Source: an uncultured Candidatus Saccharibacteria bacterium (GTDB taxonomy: Bacteria; Patescibacteriota; Doudnabacteria; UBA920). From it: 64,000 bases of DNA. Positions 5,654 through 37,153 of the stretch are shown in pieces (position 1 is the stretch's first letter; each line of letters opens with the position of its first letter). The translations under genes were made by a program, and so were the position numbers. The notes below the pieces were generated by a model, which made no database searches, had not been told where the DNA came from, and was given only the letters and a program-made list of their open reading frames with translations. The stretch is from the NCBI GenBank assembly GCA_964384035.1, contig CAYLIB010000004.1, forward strand, positions 5,340 through 69,339, written 5' to 3'.

Positions 5654-5984
5654 ACAGCTTGATCCCTACTAGGCTATATGCTTTTACCCACCACTGGTGG
5701 GCTATTGGTTCTTTTTCAATATTGGGCTCATGGCATATGAGCCTAATTATTTTTGGAGATACTTTTATTCTCATAACCCTAAGTGTAATTAAGGCAAAGT
5801 ATGTTTTTGCTATTTGTTCTTTTGACCAGCCTTTAATTACATCACAGGATATTAGACTTAGGCACTCTTTAATTTCTAAATTTATCTTGGCAGTCTCAAA
5901 TCTTTTTGAGGATTTAGAAGAGACCAGTCTAATGAGTTTATCCGGTAATTCTTCACTGCAATTTTGAAGTGTTTCGATTTCCAC
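5652..5984 (-). CDS. Hypothetical protein
   Basis: 110-aa ORF, more protein-like than the overlapping plus-strand ORF; in tandem with the 6008-6460 minus-strand gene. Confidence 0.35.
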   Translation of the reverse strand: MEIETLQNCSEELPDKLIRLVSSKSSKRFETAKINLEIKECLSLISCDVIKGWSKEQIAKTYFALITLRVMRIKVSPKIIRLICHEPNIEKEPIAHQWWVKAYSLVGIKL

Positions 5985-6007: not shown

Positions 6008-6460
6008 TTATATTTTAGTTTGGTGATCTTTTAGATCTTTTATGATGTTGGAGATTTTTTTAAGTTCTTGTTTTATTTTTATCAATTCTTTAGCTTCGAT
6101 TTTTACTTCATCTTCTGTTTTTTCAGAAAGTTTTTTTTCACCTTTTACTCCAGAGATCAGGATTTCGTTTCCGATAAAATTAGAGACCAGAGTCCCTGTT
6201 ATAAGTAGTATAAGTGTACCTATTAGTATGGAAAGTGGGCCATCCCACCATAGCAATTGTTGAAGATTTATACTAGATTCAGAGTAATTTGCATAGGCTG
6301 AGATTAGAGTCATTAGAAAATCCATGCTGTGCCATATACCTCTCCAGAATATTACTATACCTGCCCCTGCAAAAAGGGCATACCAAATGGGGAATTTACT
6401 TAGAAAACCTCTGGTGTGGTCTTCGAGTCTGTCGAAGAAGTGATAAATTTTTTTATACAT
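6008..6460 (-). CDS. Membrane protein with a C-terminal Lys/Glu-rich coiled-coil tail; function unknown
   Basis: 150 aa with two hydrophobic helices followed by a KE-rich region. Confidence 0.5.
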   Translation of the reverse strand: MYKKIYHFFDRLEDHTRGFLSKFPIWYALFAGAGIVIFWRGIWHSMDFLMTLISAYANYSESSINLQQLLWWDGPLSILIGTLILLITGTLVSNFIGNEILISGVKGEKKLSEKTEDEVKIEAKELIKIKQELKKISNIIKDLKDHQTKI

Positions 6461-7862: not shown

Positions 7863-7870
7863 TGTTCGCT

Positions 7871-7904
7871 TTTTGAAAATCTGGCTTTGCCAGTTTTCAA
7901 AAAT
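7871..7904 (+). promoter_or_regulatory. Hairpin in the intergenic region/5' leader upstream of glmS
   Basis: TTTGAAAA(T)CTGGC-TTT-GCCAGTTTTCAAA inverted repeat; no T-run follows it. Confidence 0.4.
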
Positions 7905-7988
7905 ACTTCTCCGGAAAAGAGAGGCTGTAGCGAAGCGAAAGGTTTGGAAGAGAAAAACCTGGTAAGGTTTGTCTCTCCAAGGATATAT

Positions 7989-9824
7989 ATGTGTGGAATT
8001 GTCGGATATATAGGTAATAAAAATGCAGAGGAAATATTGGTGGATGGGTTAACTCGACTCGAGTATAGGGGGTATGACTCGGCTGGTATTGCTGTTTTAG
8101 GTGAGGCAGGTTTTAGTGTTTTTAAAACTAAAGGACGAGTTAAGGATCTTGAGGATAAGATTAATGGACATGAGCTTAAAGGGAATCTTGGAATTGCTCA
8201 TACTCGCTGGGCAACACACGGGGAACCAAGTGATGTAAATGCTCATCCACACTGCGATGATAAAGGTCAGGTTTATTTGGTCCATAACGGGATAATAGAA
8301 AATTATCGACAACTTAAAGAAGAGCTTATTAGTGAAGGACATGTTTTTGTTAGTGCTACAGATAGTGAGGTCTTAGCACATTTAATAGCTAGAGAGCTTG
8401 AGAAGGAAAGGTCCCTAGTGAAAGCTGTGCGTAAGGCTTTGCGTCTAGTAATTGGTGCTTATGGTATTGCAGTTGTGGCAAAAGATTATCCTGGTGTATT
8501 AGTGGTTGCAAGACTGGGTAGTCCGCTAGTGATTGGTAGGGGGGAAGGCGAGAATATTGTTGCATCGGATGTGACTGCAATATTACCGACTACCCGAGAA
8601 GTGATTTATTTAAACGATGGTGAGATCGCTGAAGTAACGGCTTCGAAAATTACGGTATCAGATTTGGACGCAAGAATTAAAAGAACAAAGAGTGAAAAAG
8701 TAGACTGGAGCTTGGAAGAAGCTAGTAAGGGTGGCTTCGAGCACTATATGCTTAAAGAAATTTATGAGGCACCAGATGCAGTAAAAAATAGCATGCGAGG
8801 TCGTTTAGATTTTGCGAATGCGACAGCAAAACTTGGTGGTTTGGAGGATGTGAGTAAAAGACTCTCTAAAGTAAAACATATAACTATGGTGGGCATGGGT
8901 ACTGCGAGGCTTGCTGCTATGGTAGGTGAATACATGTTAGAGGAGTACGCTAGGATTCCAGTAGAGGTTGAGTTCGCTGGAGAATATACTTACAAGCAAC
9001 AACCGAATATGGATGGGGGTGCGATTTTGGCTGTTTCGCAATCGGGTGAAACAGCAGACACATTGCTAGCGGTAAAAGAAGCTAAGAGAAAAGGAGTATT
9101 GTCTTTAGGTATTGTGAACGTTATAGCTAGTTCGATCGCAAGAGAGACAGATGCTGGTGTGTATAACCATATTGGTCCGGAAGTGGCGGTCGCTTCGACA
9201 AAAGCTTTTATTTCACAGTTAACAATTTTGACTTTATTCACTTTATTCTTAGGACGCCAGAGAGATATGTCTGTTGCTACCGCGGAGCGTATAATGAAGG
9301 AGTTAAAGGGTTTACCGGAGAAGACTAAAGGTTTAATTGCAGGTTTAGATGAAGCTATAAAAGTAATTGCAGATAAATATAAAGATAAACATAACTTTTT
9401 CTTTTTAGGTAGAAAATATAATTATCCGGTTGCATTGGAAGGTGCATTGAAACTTAAAGAAGTTGCATACGTCCATGCTGAGGGATATAACGCTGCTGAA
9501 ATGAAGCATGGACCGATTGCACTTTTGGAAAAAGATTTTCCGGTAATTGTAATAGCGCCGAGTGATAGTGTGTACGAGAAAAATTTAAGCCATATCCAGG
9601 AAGTTAAAGTTCGAGGTGCAAGGGTGATAGCTATAGCAACCGAAGGTAACGAAGAAATAAAAGAATTGGTAGATGACGTCATCTATATTCCGAGGACTCT
9701 AGAAATGCTAACTCCAATCTTGTCGGTGATACCACTTCAGTTGTTTGCATATTATGTCGCGGTAGCGAGGGGGGCAGATGTAGATAAGCCGAGGAATCTC
9801 GCCAAAAGTGTAACTGTTGAGTGA
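7989..9824 (+). CDS. glmS: Glutamine--fructose-6-phosphate aminotransferase (isomerising)
   Basis: MCGIVGYIG N-terminal nucleophile (start taken at the Met before the Cys, 7989), a GATase-2 domain and two SIS domains; ends KSVTVE. Length 611 aa. Confidence 0.9.
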   Translation: MCGIVGYIGNKNAEEILVDGLTRLEYRGYDSAGIAVLGEAGFSVFKTKGRVKDLEDKINGHELKGNLGIAHTRWATHGEPSDVNAHPHCDDKGQVYLVHNGIIENYRQLKEELISEGHVFVSATDSEVLAHLIARELEKERSLVKAVRKALRLVIGAYGIAVVAKDYPGVLVVARLGSPLVIGRGEGENIVASDVTAILPTTREVIYLNDGEIAEVTASKITVSDLDARIKRTKSEKVDWSLEEASKGGFEHYMLKEIYEAPDAVKNSMRGRLDFANATAKLGGLEDVSKRLSKVKHITMVGMGTARLAAMVGEYMLEEYARIPVEVEFAGEYTYKQQPNMDGGAILAVSQSGETADTLLAVKEAKRKGVLSLGIVNVIASSIARETDAGVYNHIGPEVAVASTKAFISQLTILTLFTLFLGRQRDMSVATAERIMKELKGLPEKTKGLIAGLDEAIKVIADKYKDKHNFFFLGRKYNYPVALEGALKLKEVAYVHAEGYNAAEMKHGPIALLEKDFPVIVIAPSDSVYEKNLSHIQEVKVRGARVIAIATEGNEEIKELVDDVIYIPRTLEMLTPILSVIPLQLFAYYVAVARGADVDKPRNLAKSVTVE

Positions 9825-9825
9825 T

Positions 9826-9946
9826 GTAATTAAAATTTTGGCGAATTTCGTTGTCGCAAACTACGTTTGGGTCTCACCGTACCAGTCGCGTACGCCTCGA
9901 CTCAAGCCTCGCTTGCTCCTAGAACTTCACTCAAAATTTTAATTAC
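9826..9946. repeat. 121-bp element: perfect 15-bp AT-rich terminal inverted repeats (GTAATTAAAATTTTG / CAAAATTTTAATTAC) flanking a GC-rich ~90-bp core
   Basis: Read directly from the sequence. It lies immediately 3' of glmS; the core is far GC-richer than its surroundings. Confidence 0.5.
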
Positions 9947-9959
9947 TTAAGTTAAAATT

Positions 9960-10196
9960 ATGAAAATTTTTGATAAAATATTGTATGCTAATCGGTATTA
10001 CAAGATGAGCGATGTGGAATTGGAAATGGAAGGTAGGAAATGGAATGTTTCGGGAGGTCTATCAAATGGTAATTTGGATAGACAGTTTGTGGTTAATGAA
10101 TTATTACAGCGTCATCAAGCAAATGAAGCACGTGTAGCTATTTTGATTTCTATGATAGCTTTAGTTGTAAGTTTAATTTCTATATTTTGTAACTAA
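9960..10196 (+). CDS. Hypothetical small protein with a C-terminal TM helix
   Basis: 78-aa ORF. Confidence 0.4.
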   Translation: MKIFDKILYANRYYKMSDVELEMEGRKWNVSGGLSNGNLDRQFVVNELLQRHQANEARVAILISMIALVVSLISIFCN

Positions 10197-19688: not shown

Positions 19689-19913
19689 ACCTGACTATTG
19701 TTGACAACGAAAGATGATGGTGTATGATAAAGTATGAAAAGGGAAATTTAGTTTTTCGACTTGAGCTTTAGTATGGGCAAAGCCCGAAGCTAATCAAGAG
19801 CTCTCTTCTTGGTTTCTTCTCTTCGATGGTTATTATCTGACTCCGGAGAAACTAGGGAGCGCCTTAGGTTTATGGAGCGAACTGGGTCCGTCCCAGAACA
19901 GGAGGTTCGCTTC

Positions 19914-19961
19914 ATGGATCGGGGAAAACCTATTTATTGGAAATCATACAATCATAGATGA
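19914..19961 (+). CDS. 15-codon upstream ORF whose TGA stop overlaps the ATG of the next gene (ATGA)
   Basis: AGGAGG lies 8 nt upstream; the uORF is embedded in a GC-rich structured leader. Confidence 0.3.
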   Translation: MDRGKPIYWKSYNHR

Positions 19962-22070: not shown

Positions 22071-22081
22071 CAAGAATAAAG

Positions 22082-22151
22082 AATAGAGAATGACGAATAA
22101 CGAATAGAAAGATTTTGAGACCATCCTTTATTCTTCATTCGTCATTCTCTA
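22082..22151. repeat. AT-rich 18-bp inverted repeat (GAATAGAGAATGACGAAT / ATTCGTCATTCTCTATTC) carrying the dispersed word GAATGACGAATAACGAAT
   Basis: Follows pgk; the same 18-mer recurs at 25201-25218. Confidence 0.5.
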
Positions 22152-22207
22152 TTCGAAGGGAAAAGAAAGATGATTTACATAATAAAATTAGCAAGATTAA
22201 GTGATAT

Positions 22208-23212: not shown

Positions 23213-23286
23213 ATTCTAGAAGATGGAATTGCATATTTTGGCGGCTTTTTTCCGATTTTCTGCGAGAAGCGAATCCTTTCAGTTCA

Positions 23287-23449
23287 GGACAGGCTGAGCC
23301 TGCTCCTCAACTGAAAGGATGCTCCCTCAGGCTTGCTACACCGGAGGGAGTAGTCTTTATTCCAGGACCGGCAAAGCCGGATCCTTGCATAAAGACTTCG
23401 CTGTTTCCCCCCGCGTACGCCCTGAGCAAGGACTGGCAAAGCCAGATCC
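23287..23449. repeat. Three copies of a GC-rich hairpin motif GGAC-N-GGC-(A/T)(A/G)-AGCC-N-GATCC within nested inverted repeats
   Basis: Copies at 23287-23306, 23365-23384 and 23430-23449; related copies at 33674-33692 and 37165-37178. Confidence 0.55.
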
Positions 23450-23552
23450 TTTCAGGAGTCCCTCCGTTCACTTCTCGAAAATCGAAAAAAATCCACTCAA
23501 AATCTGCAATTGAACTTGATTGAGTTAGTTTCTAAACACAAAAGGAGGTTGT

Positions 23553-24667: not shown

Positions 24668-25213
24668 ATGTTAACTTTAATAGTTTTGTTTATTCTACTG
24701 ATTTACTCAATAGGATTACTTTTTGTAATAGGTAGTGCCTTTTGGGCTTTTGTTGTTACAAAAGTACCTTTTGTTCCGACACCTAGTAGAGACATTAAAC
24801 AATTAGTTGAGTATTTAAAGTTATCTCAAAAAGATAGAGTTTTGGATATAGGTAGCGGAAATGGGAGAGTGGTGTTTTTATTTGAAGAACTGGGGTGTGT
24901 TAAGGTAAGAGGCATAGAGGCTGGTAGATGGACCCATTATACAGCGCTTATAAACAAATATTTGAAAAAGTCACAAGCAGAATTTATAAGGGGTAACTTT
25001 TTTAAATCGGACTGGTCGGATGTAACTGTGTTATATTGTTATTTGTACCCACCATTAATGAAACGTGTAGGAGAGAAAGCGGGAGAGGAAATGAAACAAG
25101 GAGCAAGAGTGGTAAGTAGGGATTTTCCTATACCTAATTTAAAATTAGTAGAAACTTTAAAGATGGATCACAAGCATGAGTTTTATGTTTATAGGATATT
25201 GAATGACGAATAA
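24668..25213 (+). CDS. Class I SAM-dependent methyltransferase with an N-terminal TM helix
   Basis: VLDIGSGNGRVV motif I. Confidence 0.6.
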   Translation: MLTLIVLFILLIYSIGLLFVIGSAFWAFVVTKVPFVPTPSRDIKQLVEYLKLSQKDRVLDIGSGNGRVVFLFEELGCVKVRGIEAGRWTHYTALINKYLKKSQAEFIRGNFFKSDWSDVTVLYCYLYPPLMKRVGEKAGEEMKQGARVVSRDFPIPNLKLVETLKMDHKHEFYVYRILNDE

Positions 25214-25224
25214 CGAATGAAGAA
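25201..25224. repeat. Second copy of the dispersed repeat GAATGACGAATAACGAAT, overlapping the 3' end of the methyltransferase gene
   Basis: 18/18 identity with 22093-22110; related GAATAGAGAATAG words follow it. Confidence 0.4.
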
Positions 25225-25280
25225 TAGAGGATTTCGAATAGAGAATAGTGAATGATGAATGATAAACTTATGATAAATTT

Positions 25281-27326: not shown

Positions 27327-28721
27327 ATGCCTATGAAATCTACGAAAATTGTTTGTACTATAGGACCTTCTAGTGAAAAAATTGAAGTTTTAAGAGAGAT
27401 GGTAAAAGCAGGTATGAATGTGGCGAGGTTAAATTTTAGCCATGGTACCTATGAAAACCACGCTTTGTTAATGCAGAATATTCGAACTGTTTCTAAGGAG
27501 TTAGATGTACCCATAGCTATTATTCAGGACTTACAAGGACCGAAAATTCGGGTTGACTCGAAAACTGAGTTGTTTTCTATAACTGAGGGACAAGAAGTGG
27601 TAATAGGAAGAGACTTTGGTTTGGATTTTCCAATTCATGAGTCAGTTAAATCTGGGGAGAGAATACTAATACAGGATGGGTTAATTCAACTTAAGATAAA
27701 GCAAATAGAAGGTGAGTTAATTTTCTGTGAAGCGGTGAATTCGGGTGTAGTTAGAAAACATAAGGGTATAAATTTACCTGATAGTGATATTAAATTTCCG
27801 ATTCTTACTGAAAAAGACAAGAGAGACTTGGTTTTTGGATTAGGGGCAGATGTGGATTATGTCGCTGTCTCTTTTGTGAGAAATAAACAGGATGTCTTGC
27901 AAATAAAAGAATTAATAGCAACTCAAAGTTCTGCTAATTCAGAGCTTCCTTTGGTAATAGCAAAAATTGAAAGACCTGAGGCGATAAAAAACATTGATGA
28001 AATTATTTCTGTTGCGGACGCTATAATGGTAGCAAGAGGAGATATGGGGGTAGAGTTACCTGTAGAACAAGTCCCGGTTATTCAAAAGGATATAATAGAA
28101 AAATGTTTAAAACACGCTAAACCGGTTATTGTAGCAACTCAGATGCTTGAATCTATGATTTCTAATCCGAGACCAACGAGGGCTGAGGTGAGTGATGTAG
28201 CGAATGCGGTAATAGATCATACTGATGCGGTTATGCTTTCTGAGGAGAGTGCATTTGGCAATTTTCCTATTCCAGCAGTTACAGAGATGGCAAAGATTAT
28301 CGAAACTATCGAGTCTTCAAGATATGTTGGGCCTGGATATGTTTTTGAAGGAGCTGAAGAAGATAAAAATGTTGCTACAGTTGCGTATTCAGCAGGGGAA
28401 TTGGTAAAGGGGAGTGAGGCTAAGGCGATTATAGGTTTAACTCAGAGTGGATTAACGGCTAGAATGCTTGCGCATATGAGACCCAGTGTGCCAATTTTTA
28501 TGCTTACTGATAAACCCAAAGTTCATAGACAATTATGTTTGCTTCGAGGGGTATATCCGGTTTTGGTACCGAGTTATGAATCTGTGATGGAGCTTTTAGA
28601 TAAAGCGGTAGATGAAGTTAAGGCTAGGGGGTTGGTTAAGACAGGTGACTCGGTAGTACTTGTTACGGGGAGACCTTTAGGTGGAAAGGCTAATTTATTG
28701 GAATCGATTATTATTAATTAA
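27327..28721 (+). CDS. pyk: Pyruvate kinase
   Basis: KIVCTIGP...NVARLNFSHG...MVARGDMGVE motifs. Confidence 0.9.
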   Translation: MPMKSTKIVCTIGPSSEKIEVLREMVKAGMNVARLNFSHGTYENHALLMQNIRTVSKELDVPIAIIQDLQGPKIRVDSKTELFSITEGQEVVIGRDFGLDFPIHESVKSGERILIQDGLIQLKIKQIEGELIFCEAVNSGVVRKHKGINLPDSDIKFPILTEKDKRDLVFGLGADVDYVAVSFVRNKQDVLQIKELIATQSSANSELPLVIAKIERPEAIKNIDEIISVADAIMVARGDMGVELPVEQVPVIQKDIIEKCLKHAKPVIVATQMLESMISNPRPTRAEVSDVANAVIDHTDAVMLSEESAFGNFPIPAVTEMAKIIETIESSRYVGPGYVFEGAEEDKNVATVAYSAGELVKGSEAKAIIGLTQSGLTARMLAHMRPSVPIFMLTDKPKVHRQLCLLRGVYPVLVPSYESVMELLDKAVDEVKARGLVKTGDSVVLVTGRPLGGKANLLESIIIN

Positions 28722-28733
28722 TTTAGTTATACT

Positions 28734-28830
28734 ATTTCAGAAAATATTTTCTCCTCACTAGGTCCTCCTACGCCTCTGGATGCACAGATGCTGGGTCCGG
28801 ATATCGTTCGAAGCAAATATTTTCTGAAAT
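28734..28830. repeat. 97-bp element: perfect 16-bp AT-rich terminal inverted repeats (ATTTCAGAAAATATTT / AAATATTTTCTGAAAT) flanking a GC-rich core
   Basis: Same architecture as the 9826-9946 element; it lies immediately 3' of pyk. Confidence 0.5.
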
Positions 28831-28857
28831 AGTATGCTATGTCATTAGGAAAATAAT

Positions 28858-31316: not shown

Positions 31317-31406
31317 TGGCGGAGACGGGGAGATTCGAACTCCCGAGAGCTTTGACACCCTACTCGCTTTCCAAGCGAGCGCACTCGACCACTATGCGAC
31401 GTCTCC
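31317..31406 (-). tRNA. tRNA-Ser (anticodon GGA), type II with a long variable arm; CCA encoded
   Basis: Reverse complement folds by hand: acceptor GGAGACG/CGUCUCC, D-stem GCA/UGC, anticodon stem CUCGC/GCGAG with loop UUGGAAA, T-arm GGGAG-UUCGAAU-CUCCC, discriminator G, CCA. Confidence 0.9.
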
Positions 31407-33599: not shown

Positions 33600-33659
33600 G
33601 TTGTATTTATCAGTAAAAAATATCGTGGACACGGGTCAAAAATTTCCGGGAGGGAGCAC

Positions 33660-33704
33660 CTCTTCTTCTCAGAGGCAGGCTCAGCCTGACCCTGAGAAGA
33701 AGAG
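33660..33704. repeat. GC-rich hairpin element of the same motif family (core GGCAGGCTCAGCCTGACC) inside a 13-bp inverted repeat CTCTTCTTCTCAG/CTGAGAAGAAGAG
   Basis: Read directly; it lies upstream of dnaG. Confidence 0.5.
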
Positions 33705-33886
33705 ATTCGCTTTTCGAATTTTTGCCCTCACTCTCAGCAAAAAACTGCGATGCAGGACCAAGCTTTTTTGTTTCCGAGACGGTCCGCGATATTTTTTTTC
33801 GGATAAATACAATAGTATATTGAAAAAGAAATCGGGATCTAGAGTGGGAATTTGATAAGTAGGTGGGGGGAGGGTAAAATGAAGGT

Positions 33887-37091: not shown

Positions 37092-37153
37092 TCGTTCTAT
37101 GGACGGTGGGGCTTCCCCTCCGCCATTACCACCAACCCCTTACGGGAAGATAT

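Follow-up and report, generated by a model that had tools for sequence, protein, structure and literature searches.

Why does a short GC-rich segment, closed on either side by perfect AT-rich inverted repeats, lie directly behind glmS, and what kind of sequence is it? The locus belongs to a 64-kb stretch of DNA that was analysed as a whole (the window), the best protein matches of which are to Patescibacteria, Parcubacteria or Doudnabacteria by name. In a first-pass annotation, the segment was set beside a second element of the same architecture 3' of pyk, and both were proposed to be MITE-like miniatures, structured RNAs or terminator/insulator modules. We suspect, with a probability of roughly two in three, that the glmS element (E1) belongs to a family (B) of non-coding palindromic repeats dispersed in Patescibacteria, and that B and the modules found with it (P, M and hairpins tipped with GGCAAAGCC) are mobile but non-autonomous. 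The window features on which this reading draws are given below; L-numbers, here and later, denote Patescibacteria contigs from assemblies other than that of the window.

7989-9824, plus strand: glmS, 611 aa, with Pfam SIS and GATase domains and a true start at MCGIVGY
9826-9946, better-pairing ("sense") strand minus: E1, a 121-bp imperfect palindrome
9826-9840: left arm of E1, GTAATTAAAATTTTG, in which 9835-9843 (ATTTTGGCG) is family-conserved and GTAATTAAA is the E1-specific outer portion
9887-9896: apex block of E1, CGCGTACGCC, common to the gap copy (23412-23421) and L014
9932-9946: right arm of E1, CAAAATTTTAATTAC, with CACTCAAAAT (9928-9937) as the family-conserved terminus
9960-10196, plus strand: 78-aa ORF that begins 13 nt beyond E1
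About 23226-23511, minus strand: E4, the second B-family copy, 3' of gap, a backbone with three nested hairpins
23248-23330, minus strand: module M in E4, consisting of GGGAGCATCC, a variable-stem hairpin and GGATTCGCTTCTCGCAG (E 2e-10)
23352-23396: nested hairpin in E4 with the conserved tip AGGACCGGCAAAGCCGGATCC; its sister hairpin lies at 23421-23459
27327-28721, plus strand: pyk, 464 aa, upstream of E2
28729-28835, plus strand: E2, 107 bp, with 21-bp AT-rich perfect arms around module P
28755-28797, plus strand: module P, AGGTCCTCCTACGC..GGATGCAC..TGCTGGGTC, homologous to L044 2140-2182
28858-29160: mscL, downstream of E2, which lies between pyk and mscL
33601-33812, plus strand: E3, 212 bp, between a 395-aa ORF and dnaG
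33648-33727, plus strand: module M in E3, in the orientation opposite to the E4 copy (E 8e-6)

The basic description of E1 as a perfect 15-bp AT-rich inverted repeat around a GC-rich core 3' of glmS is borne out by the sequence, its GC content and the Pfam domains of the upstream gene. The core (9841-9931, 91 nt) has a GC content of 0.54, compared with 0.13 in the arms and 0.32-0.40 in the flanks, and it is richer in C than in G (30 vs 19); in the rest of the window the plus strand has a G:C ratio of about 1.7:1. E1 sets in 2 nt past the glmS stop codon, and a weaker repeat, which reaches 9817-9840 and 9932-9955 at 83%, overlaps this codon. Because the 78-aa ORF starts 13 nt downstream, E1 is intercistronic. 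Folding of the full elements, suggested earlier as a check, shows both E1 and E2 to be far more stable than their shuffles (z -4.5 to -7.1), each as one long imperfect hairpin. In the window there are three perfect inverted repeats with arms of at least 15 bp and a loop of 20-300 nt, whereas 100 dinucleotide shuffles gave 0.02 on average and never more than 1. The spacer 5' of glmS (7863-7988) has structure of its own, a hairpin tipped with CTGGCTTTGCCAG (7865-7900) and a second hairpin, with no match to the glmS ribozyme.

The second element, 3' of pyk, exists as had been proposed, with coordinates that need a slight correction: its arms run from 28729 to 28749 and from 28815 to 28835 rather than spanning 28734-28830, are perfect over 21 bp, and can be extended to 37 nt at 81%. 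The idea that the glmS and pyk elements represent a single type does not hold, as they carry different modules, B and P, and direct similarity between E1 and E2, or between E1 and E3, was not significant in a shared 8-mer test. Module P is 86% identical over 43 nt between the window and L044 (E 8e-8), and the stem change from UCUG/CAGA to CCCG/CGGG between the two is compensatory.

A window scan for inverted repeats and unusually stable folds identified two further elements, E3 and E4, both with z about -9.3. In E3, arms of roughly 30 bp, again AT-rich, enclose a core bearing module M. This module, common to E3 on the plus strand and E4 on the minus strand, consists of GGGAGCA(TCC), a hairpin, and (GG)ATTCGCTTC. 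Its flanks and hairpin tip are conserved; the stem sequence is wholly different and yet complementary. The elements show structural covariation. The modules also nest in one another: removing the three nested hairpins from E4 leaves a B backbone like that of L044 (97.8% identity over 46 nt and 90.5% over 42 nt). Altogether, B is represented twice and M two to three times in the 64 kb. The elements of this study range from 107 to 286 bp, and the sole ORF among them is a spurious 41-codon frame that is not kept in L004. A small ORF or glmS read-through across E1 was likewise considered and rejected, given that the frame differs from that of L004, which stops after 15 codons.

The spacers of the window contain other hairpins as well. 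The tip GGCAAAGCC occurs five times (7883, 19776, 23370, 23435 and 37166) compared with 0.45 expected, always in spacers, and also at L015 8316 and L006 5455; a longer unit with this tip, AGGACNGGCNNAGCCNGNTCC, shows compensatory changes between copies. A GC-rich repeat, GGTGGGGCTTCCCCTCCGC ... ACCACCAACCCCTTA, is common to non-orthologous spacers (window 37100-37145; L015 8277-8408), and the L015 copy is interrupted by a GGGTTGGGCAAAGCCCACCC hairpin. A plainer AT-rich hairpin lies 3' of pgk (22081-22154). It is one of a set of strand-asymmetric low-complexity hairpins after genes, made of GAATNA-type repeats in the window (22081-22154, 25201-25260) and of AGTTTTTAG repeats in L017 (839-912, 1711-1783), at two sites each and distinct from B, P and M. 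Between 46000 and 64000 the GC content of the window climbs from about 0.36 to 0.42-0.50, and long hairpins become fewer.

Assigning E1 to a family depends on its resemblance to other hairpins of about 105-120 nt, which make up family B and have copies in E1, E4, L044, L014, L013 and L004. Three blocks recur exactly and in the same order in E1 and E4, with ATTTTGGCG on the left, CGCGTACGCC at the apex and CACTCAAAAT on the right. On the plus strand of the window ATTTTGGCG occurs exactly at 9835 and 23235 only, and CACTCAAAAT exactly at 9928 and 23494 only on that strand. The two elements have eight 8-mers in common, compared with 0.75 expected, in the same orientation only. End-to-end local alignment of the minus strand of E1 with the L044 copy gave a score of 20, compared with 9.5±1.8 for dinucleotide-type shuffles (P 0.002); none of 500 palindrome-preserving shuffles reached 20, and the wrong orientation scored 9. 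The inner termini ATTTTG(A/G)G.G and C.C(T/C)CAAAAT are conserved in E1, E4, L044 and L014, and the outer AT-rich arms that form the perfect 15-bp repeat are copy-specific.

A consensus of three B sequences forms one long hairpin with 39 pairs, 10 of which show compensatory changes. The covariance model of B (R1) gives E1 92.6 bits, E1 itself being in the training set, and it recovers the copy in L004 (E 0.04) as well as the partial one in L014 (E 0.075). A joint MAFFT alignment of E1, E2, E4 and L004 was uninformative. Since the identity of E1 to B is about 55% and BLAST alone reported no match, we regard E1 as a probable diverged copy of this hairpin family with moderate confidence only.

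Further copies were sought, as had been recommended, and non-orthologous loci proved to contain them, both in the window and in other genomes. One case is L044, a metagenome-assembled genome labelled Candidatus Saccharibacteria, in which pieces of B, P and M lie within 400 nt. Its B copy is a 106-nt hairpin (matched region 2391-2506) that is 91-98% identical to the E4 backbone, and its M unit directly follows P. The flanking genes are unrelated to gap or pgk, and the 8 kb of this contig have no coding similarity to the window. L014 has a new partial B copy at its very contig end, TTGCAGATTTTGAGT...GACGCGTACG, with no counterpart in the window, and in L015 module M lies upstream of pgk, where the window spacer is 4 nt. 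The modules are present at non-orthologous sites within and between genomes, and in both orientations. The earlier proposal that the elements form a class stands; that the class is specific to one genome does not, given B, P and M in other Patescibacteria contigs. B, P and M were not found in viral contigs, phage records or plasmid records.

Pattern scans for M yielded few real matches among many chance ones. In the genome collection, 1 of 16 matches was real (L044) and 15 were chance matches in GC-rich coding DNA; a scan for the M flanks in public metagenome contigs gave 4 real matches out of 17, the other 13 again being chance matches in GC-rich coding DNA. E4 was not re-found in the scanned collections, which therefore do not contain the window's own contigs. 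The real metagenome matches (L021, L026, L031 and L033) are copies of an element of about 141 nt with M at its centre, 79-96% identical to one another, with 56 predicted pairs, 12 of which show a compensatory change among the four contigs. Three L031-type copies came from one metagenome. The L021, L026 and L033 copies, like E1 to E4, lie in spacers, that of L033 starting 13 nt past a stop codon. The L031 copy (700-862) lies in frame within a phosphoglucomutase/phosphomannomutase gene, the frame of which stays open, and at least one related element is thus located inside a protein-coding gene. It adds about 49 aa (product residues 36-88, compared with residues 54-59 of PDB 5kl0) and bears short AT-rich inverted flanks, TTGTTAAAACAG and CTTGTTTTAACG.

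Comparison of the glmS, pyk and gap 3' regions with those of relatives, also recommended earlier, showed sites that are empty or hold something else, so that orthologous sites vary in the presence of elements. Percentages are protein identities.

glmS, L004 (80%): left arm of E1 and the next ~20 nt, with a diverged right arm; z +0.5 to +1.3, no fold
glmS, L006 (73%): a different 290-nt spacer
glmS, L005 (70%): 34 nt only, including GTAATTAAAA (the outer left arm of E1), with no core
pyk, L013 (84%): GCATATTTTGGCTGATCTCCGG, a B-type end instead of E2, where the contig stops
pyk, L014 (62%): pyk overlaps the next gene
gap, L015 (86%, syntenic over 10 kb): E4 absent
gap, L016 (84%): E4 absent
gap, L017 (71%): E4 absent

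Given dispersed copies and empty or different sites, E1 is neither a sequence without further copies nor one that is the same in all relatives. At the glmS site it is old and vertically inherited, since the closest glmS relative, L004, holds homologous ends there. In L004 the interval 5880-5979 apparently contains two diverged copies of the E1 right arm, at about 5880-5912 and 5939-5979. The L005 spacer (6247-6280) contains GTAATTAAAAAATAT, equal to the outer left arm of E1, without the GC-rich core or the right arm. Four assemblies of the genome from which the window comes (three from JGI samples and one from an SRA run) are 99.9-100% identical to the window; the elements are therefore not assembly artefacts, and there are no filled and empty strain alleles among them. 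Two contigs of relatives end inside B-type palindromes (L013 2224-2252; L014 1-70, the latter exactly at the hairpin apex), which suggests that B elements break short-read assemblies.

One strand of the elements pairs better than the other. Minimum free energies on the plus and minus strands were -38.6 and -47.0 kcal/mol for E1, -130.2 and -149.5 kcal/mol for E4, and -95.5 and -87.9 kcal/mol for E3, the mRNA-sense strand of E1 thus forming the weaker hairpin. In the predicted helices, G.U cells outnumber A.C cells by 16 to 1 in B and by 20 to 2 in the L031-type element, counts that are biased to one strand because the structures were predicted on that strand. In all B copies seen (E1, E4, L004, L013, L014 and L044), the strand that pairs better runs antisense to the genes next to it, a bias that is suggestive, with about five independent loci. 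At gathering score, Rfam 15 matched only tRNA-Ser in the window, in agreement with a tRNA/tmRNA scan that found tRNA-Ser alone (31317-31406). Relaxed Rfam scans of the window returned generic hairpin (miRNA-precursor) noise, and L015, L021, L026, L031 and L033 gave nothing at gathering or relaxed thresholds.

The window and L015 also contain structured 5' leaders. That upstream of the NTP-transferase gene (window 19689-19957) folds at -83.9 on the plus strand compared with -52.8 on the minus strand and lies downstream of a near-consensus promoter, TTGACA-16-TATGAT (19701-19728). Two paralogous leaders in L015 (4560-4670 and 5535-5736), of the NTP-transferase gene and of pgk, share GAAAACATGGTTTTCCC, CTCACCCTTTCCGCTGATTTTT and GGGGAAAAGCTATATATTTGATCTCAT. 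These leaders have no Rfam match and are a candidate cis-regulatory RNA.

The strand preference bears on whether B, P and M could act as RNAs, in other words as a multi-copy structured small RNA gene or regulatory RNA family, transcribed from the better-pairing strand, whose DNA copies arose by duplication and not by transposition. The better pairing of one strand in E1, E4 and E3 fits this idea, as do the many G.U and nearly absent A.C cells, compensatory changes in B, P and M, conservation of up to 91-98% between genomes, and the occurrence of M in the 5' leader region of NTP-transferase and pgk genes. However, the copies have no conserved promoter or terminator alongside and match no Rfam family, B tolerates large internal hairpin insertions, M lies in either orientation relative to genes, a related element sits within coding sequence (L031), the L004 copy has lost its fold, and the G.U counts lean to the strand used for prediction. 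We consider an RNA family unlikely on balance. Another reading is that a locus-specific cis element arose in situ in the glmS and pyk mRNAs, as a terminator, insulator or 3'-end stabiliser. In its favour, each element lies a few nt past a stop codon and folds into a hairpin of high stability, the 80%-identical glmS relative retains the left arm and the ~20 nt behind it, and other window genes also end in hairpins. Against this, the mRNA-sense strand of E1 folds more weakly, these sequences recur at unrelated loci as well as in other genomes and are absent from relatives at 62-86% identity, the L004 ortholog has no fold, and on either strand the T-run of E4 lies at the 5' side.

The terminator option, which had been among those proposed, fails its defining test: no U-run stands behind either hairpin, E1 being followed by TTAAGTTAAAATTATG and E2 by GCTATGTCATTAGG, and the canonical hairpin-plus-U sites that exist elsewhere in the window do not include them. 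As a full explanation, evolution in place is already contradicted, and we regard it as improbable in any form. Far less credible still, to the point of being negligible, is an origin by chance or as assembly-artefact palindromes. AT-rich genomes do readily yield short palindromes, and the contigs of two relatives end within B elements; the excess of perfect repeats over shuffles, the identical sequence in four independent assemblies and the homologous copies in unrelated assemblies all speak against it. Mobility, our preferred reading, has points against it as well, namely that only two B copies occur in 64 kb, that the similarity of E1 to B is modest, that E1 is old at the glmS site, where the copy in L004 has homologous ends and no longer folds, and that target-site duplications, constant outer arms and an enzyme gene for movement were not found in the window.

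Among the original proposals, a MITE-like nature fits best, and the small size and lack of coding capacity agree with it, MITEs measuring about 50-500 bp. It is the strict hallmarks that are missing: there is no target-site duplication, the outer repeats are copy-specific rather than conserved, and no partner transposase is seen in the window, so that in the strict sense E1 is no MITE. Direct repeats are lacking on the flanks of E1, E2 and E4, and the nested junctions show only ambiguous repeats of 2-3 nt. The A/T palindromes in both arms of E1 and E2 (AAAATTTT; AAATATTTTCT) mimic a direct repeat and were dropped as target-site duplications because E3 and E4 do not show them. Pfam searches of nearly the whole 64-kb window detected no transposase, recombinase, integrase, reverse transcriptase or Nop-domain gene, and an autonomous IS with matching ends was found neither in the window Pfam lists nor in phage, plasmid and viral collections.

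Several other candidates were rejected. A sigma-54 or sigma-70 promoter in the conserved left end (TTGGC..., TAAAAT) has a motif that is not conserved across copies. Integron attC sites have R''/R' core sites of the form RYYYAAC...GTTRRRY, and Tn7 ends lie about 25 bp after glmS; there are no such core sites here, nor Tn7-like ends, integrase or tns genes. For retron msr/msd, the defining protein gene and motif are absent. TIGR-Tas systems consist of a tandem array by a Nop-domain tas gene, with loops that carry two variable spacers of 8-12 nt between box C/D (PMC12045711). The elements are dispersed rather than tandem and lack a Nop-domain gene, and their "loops" are conserved self-paired modules, not spacers.

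If E1 and its relatives are mobile, they would represent non-autonomous selfish DNA of the MITE, RPE, ERIC or Correia kind that moves now or did so recently. Such elements would pile up in short spacers just past stop codons, where they may do little harm. Upon read-through from the upstream gene, an element would equip the transcript with a long imperfect hairpin in its 3' region, and this hairpin could serve as a 3' stabiliser or an RNase III substrate and not as a canonical intrinsic terminator. Selection may have acted to preserve the hairpin on a single strand, which in B is the one antisense to the neighbours and in the M element of the mutase gene the coding one. Given such selection, a single-stranded intermediate, either DNA or RNA, is probably what matters.

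In E1, E2, E3, L021, L026 and L031, the conserved core is bordered by inverted repeats, short or long, and no two copies have the same ones. These varied outer repeats, together with the arm in L005, could mean that insertion takes place in palindromes already present, or that the flank is copied in inverted form. We tentatively raise the rather unlikely possibility of a structure-directed single-strand mechanism that inserts hairpins in or beside hairpins and copies the adjacent flank in inverted form. It would explain conserved cores with differing arms, the lack of direct duplication, the nesting, and the GTAATTAAAA arm without a core in L005. If correct, this would add to the prokaryotic mobile elements an as yet undescribed kind, spread across CPR bacteria.

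The genomes of CPR bacteria (Patescibacteria) rank among the smallest and most streamlined of any bacteria, and the usual description is that they contain little mobile DNA. From this perspective, it is of interest that modular, nested palindromic repeats are common to different CPR genomes and lie at the 3' ends of core metabolic genes. No description of MITE-like or palindromic repeats in Patescibacteria was found in the literature searched, coverage of which was partial, a negative that speaks only weakly for novelty. Non-coding and conserved in structure, the elements show covariation without any Rfam match, and in practical terms they offer an account of why contigs break in CPR assemblies. 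Should one strand turn out to be the active form, a new hairpin-recognising recombinase or RNA function might be reached through them.

Known systems resemble these elements to different degrees. Intrinsic terminators share with E1 and E2 a stable hairpin right after the stop codon, and the AT-rich outer pairing of the two elements resembles the A-tract/U-tract extension of bidirectional terminators. In contrast to terminators, E1 and E2 have no U-run, are hairpins 5-10 times longer than terminator stems, and are repeated elsewhere. In REP/BIME and the pneumococcal BOX, RUP and SPRITE elements, short GC-rich hairpin units in spacers cluster and insert into one another (PMC10969869), and this clustering is matched by the GGCAAAGCC-tipped hairpins nested in E4. 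Unlike REP/BIME, the present data contain no RAYT/TnpA-REP gene and no GTAG/CGTC tag, and unlike REP or BOX, the present units keep the tip and flanks, with the stem sequence changing completely.

ERIC/IRU and Correia (NEMIS) elements of Enterobacteria and Neisseria, for which processing by RNase III or RNase E is documented (PMC10969869), are imperfect palindromes as well, measure ~100-200 bp and lie in transcribed spacers, frequently at the 3' ends of genes. As the present elements would, they form long RNA hairpins in read-through transcripts, and in both, internal insertion gives rise to size variants. However, Correia elements carry 26-bp terminal repeats that are conserved, along with a TA duplication and an IHF site, and the present elements showed none of these; ERIC and Correia elements reach tens to hundreds of copies per genome, compared with two B copies in 64 kb.

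The Rickettsia palindromic elements (RPEs) are located both in spacers and in frame inside metabolic genes (PMC10969869). The present elements differ from them in being modular and nested with variable outer arms, in having one in-frame case, and in belonging to another phylum. In other respects the two agree, in that RPEs too are non-coding palindromes of ~100-150 bp, fall into several families, inhabit a reduced-genome, host-dependent bacterium, and have no known transposase and no clear target-site duplication. They share the combination of spacer and in-frame sites, which is a likeness of form and no evidence of relationship by sequence. The in-frame insertion into an enzyme gene in L031 thus parallels the RPEs of Rickettsia, in which the genome is likewise reduced.
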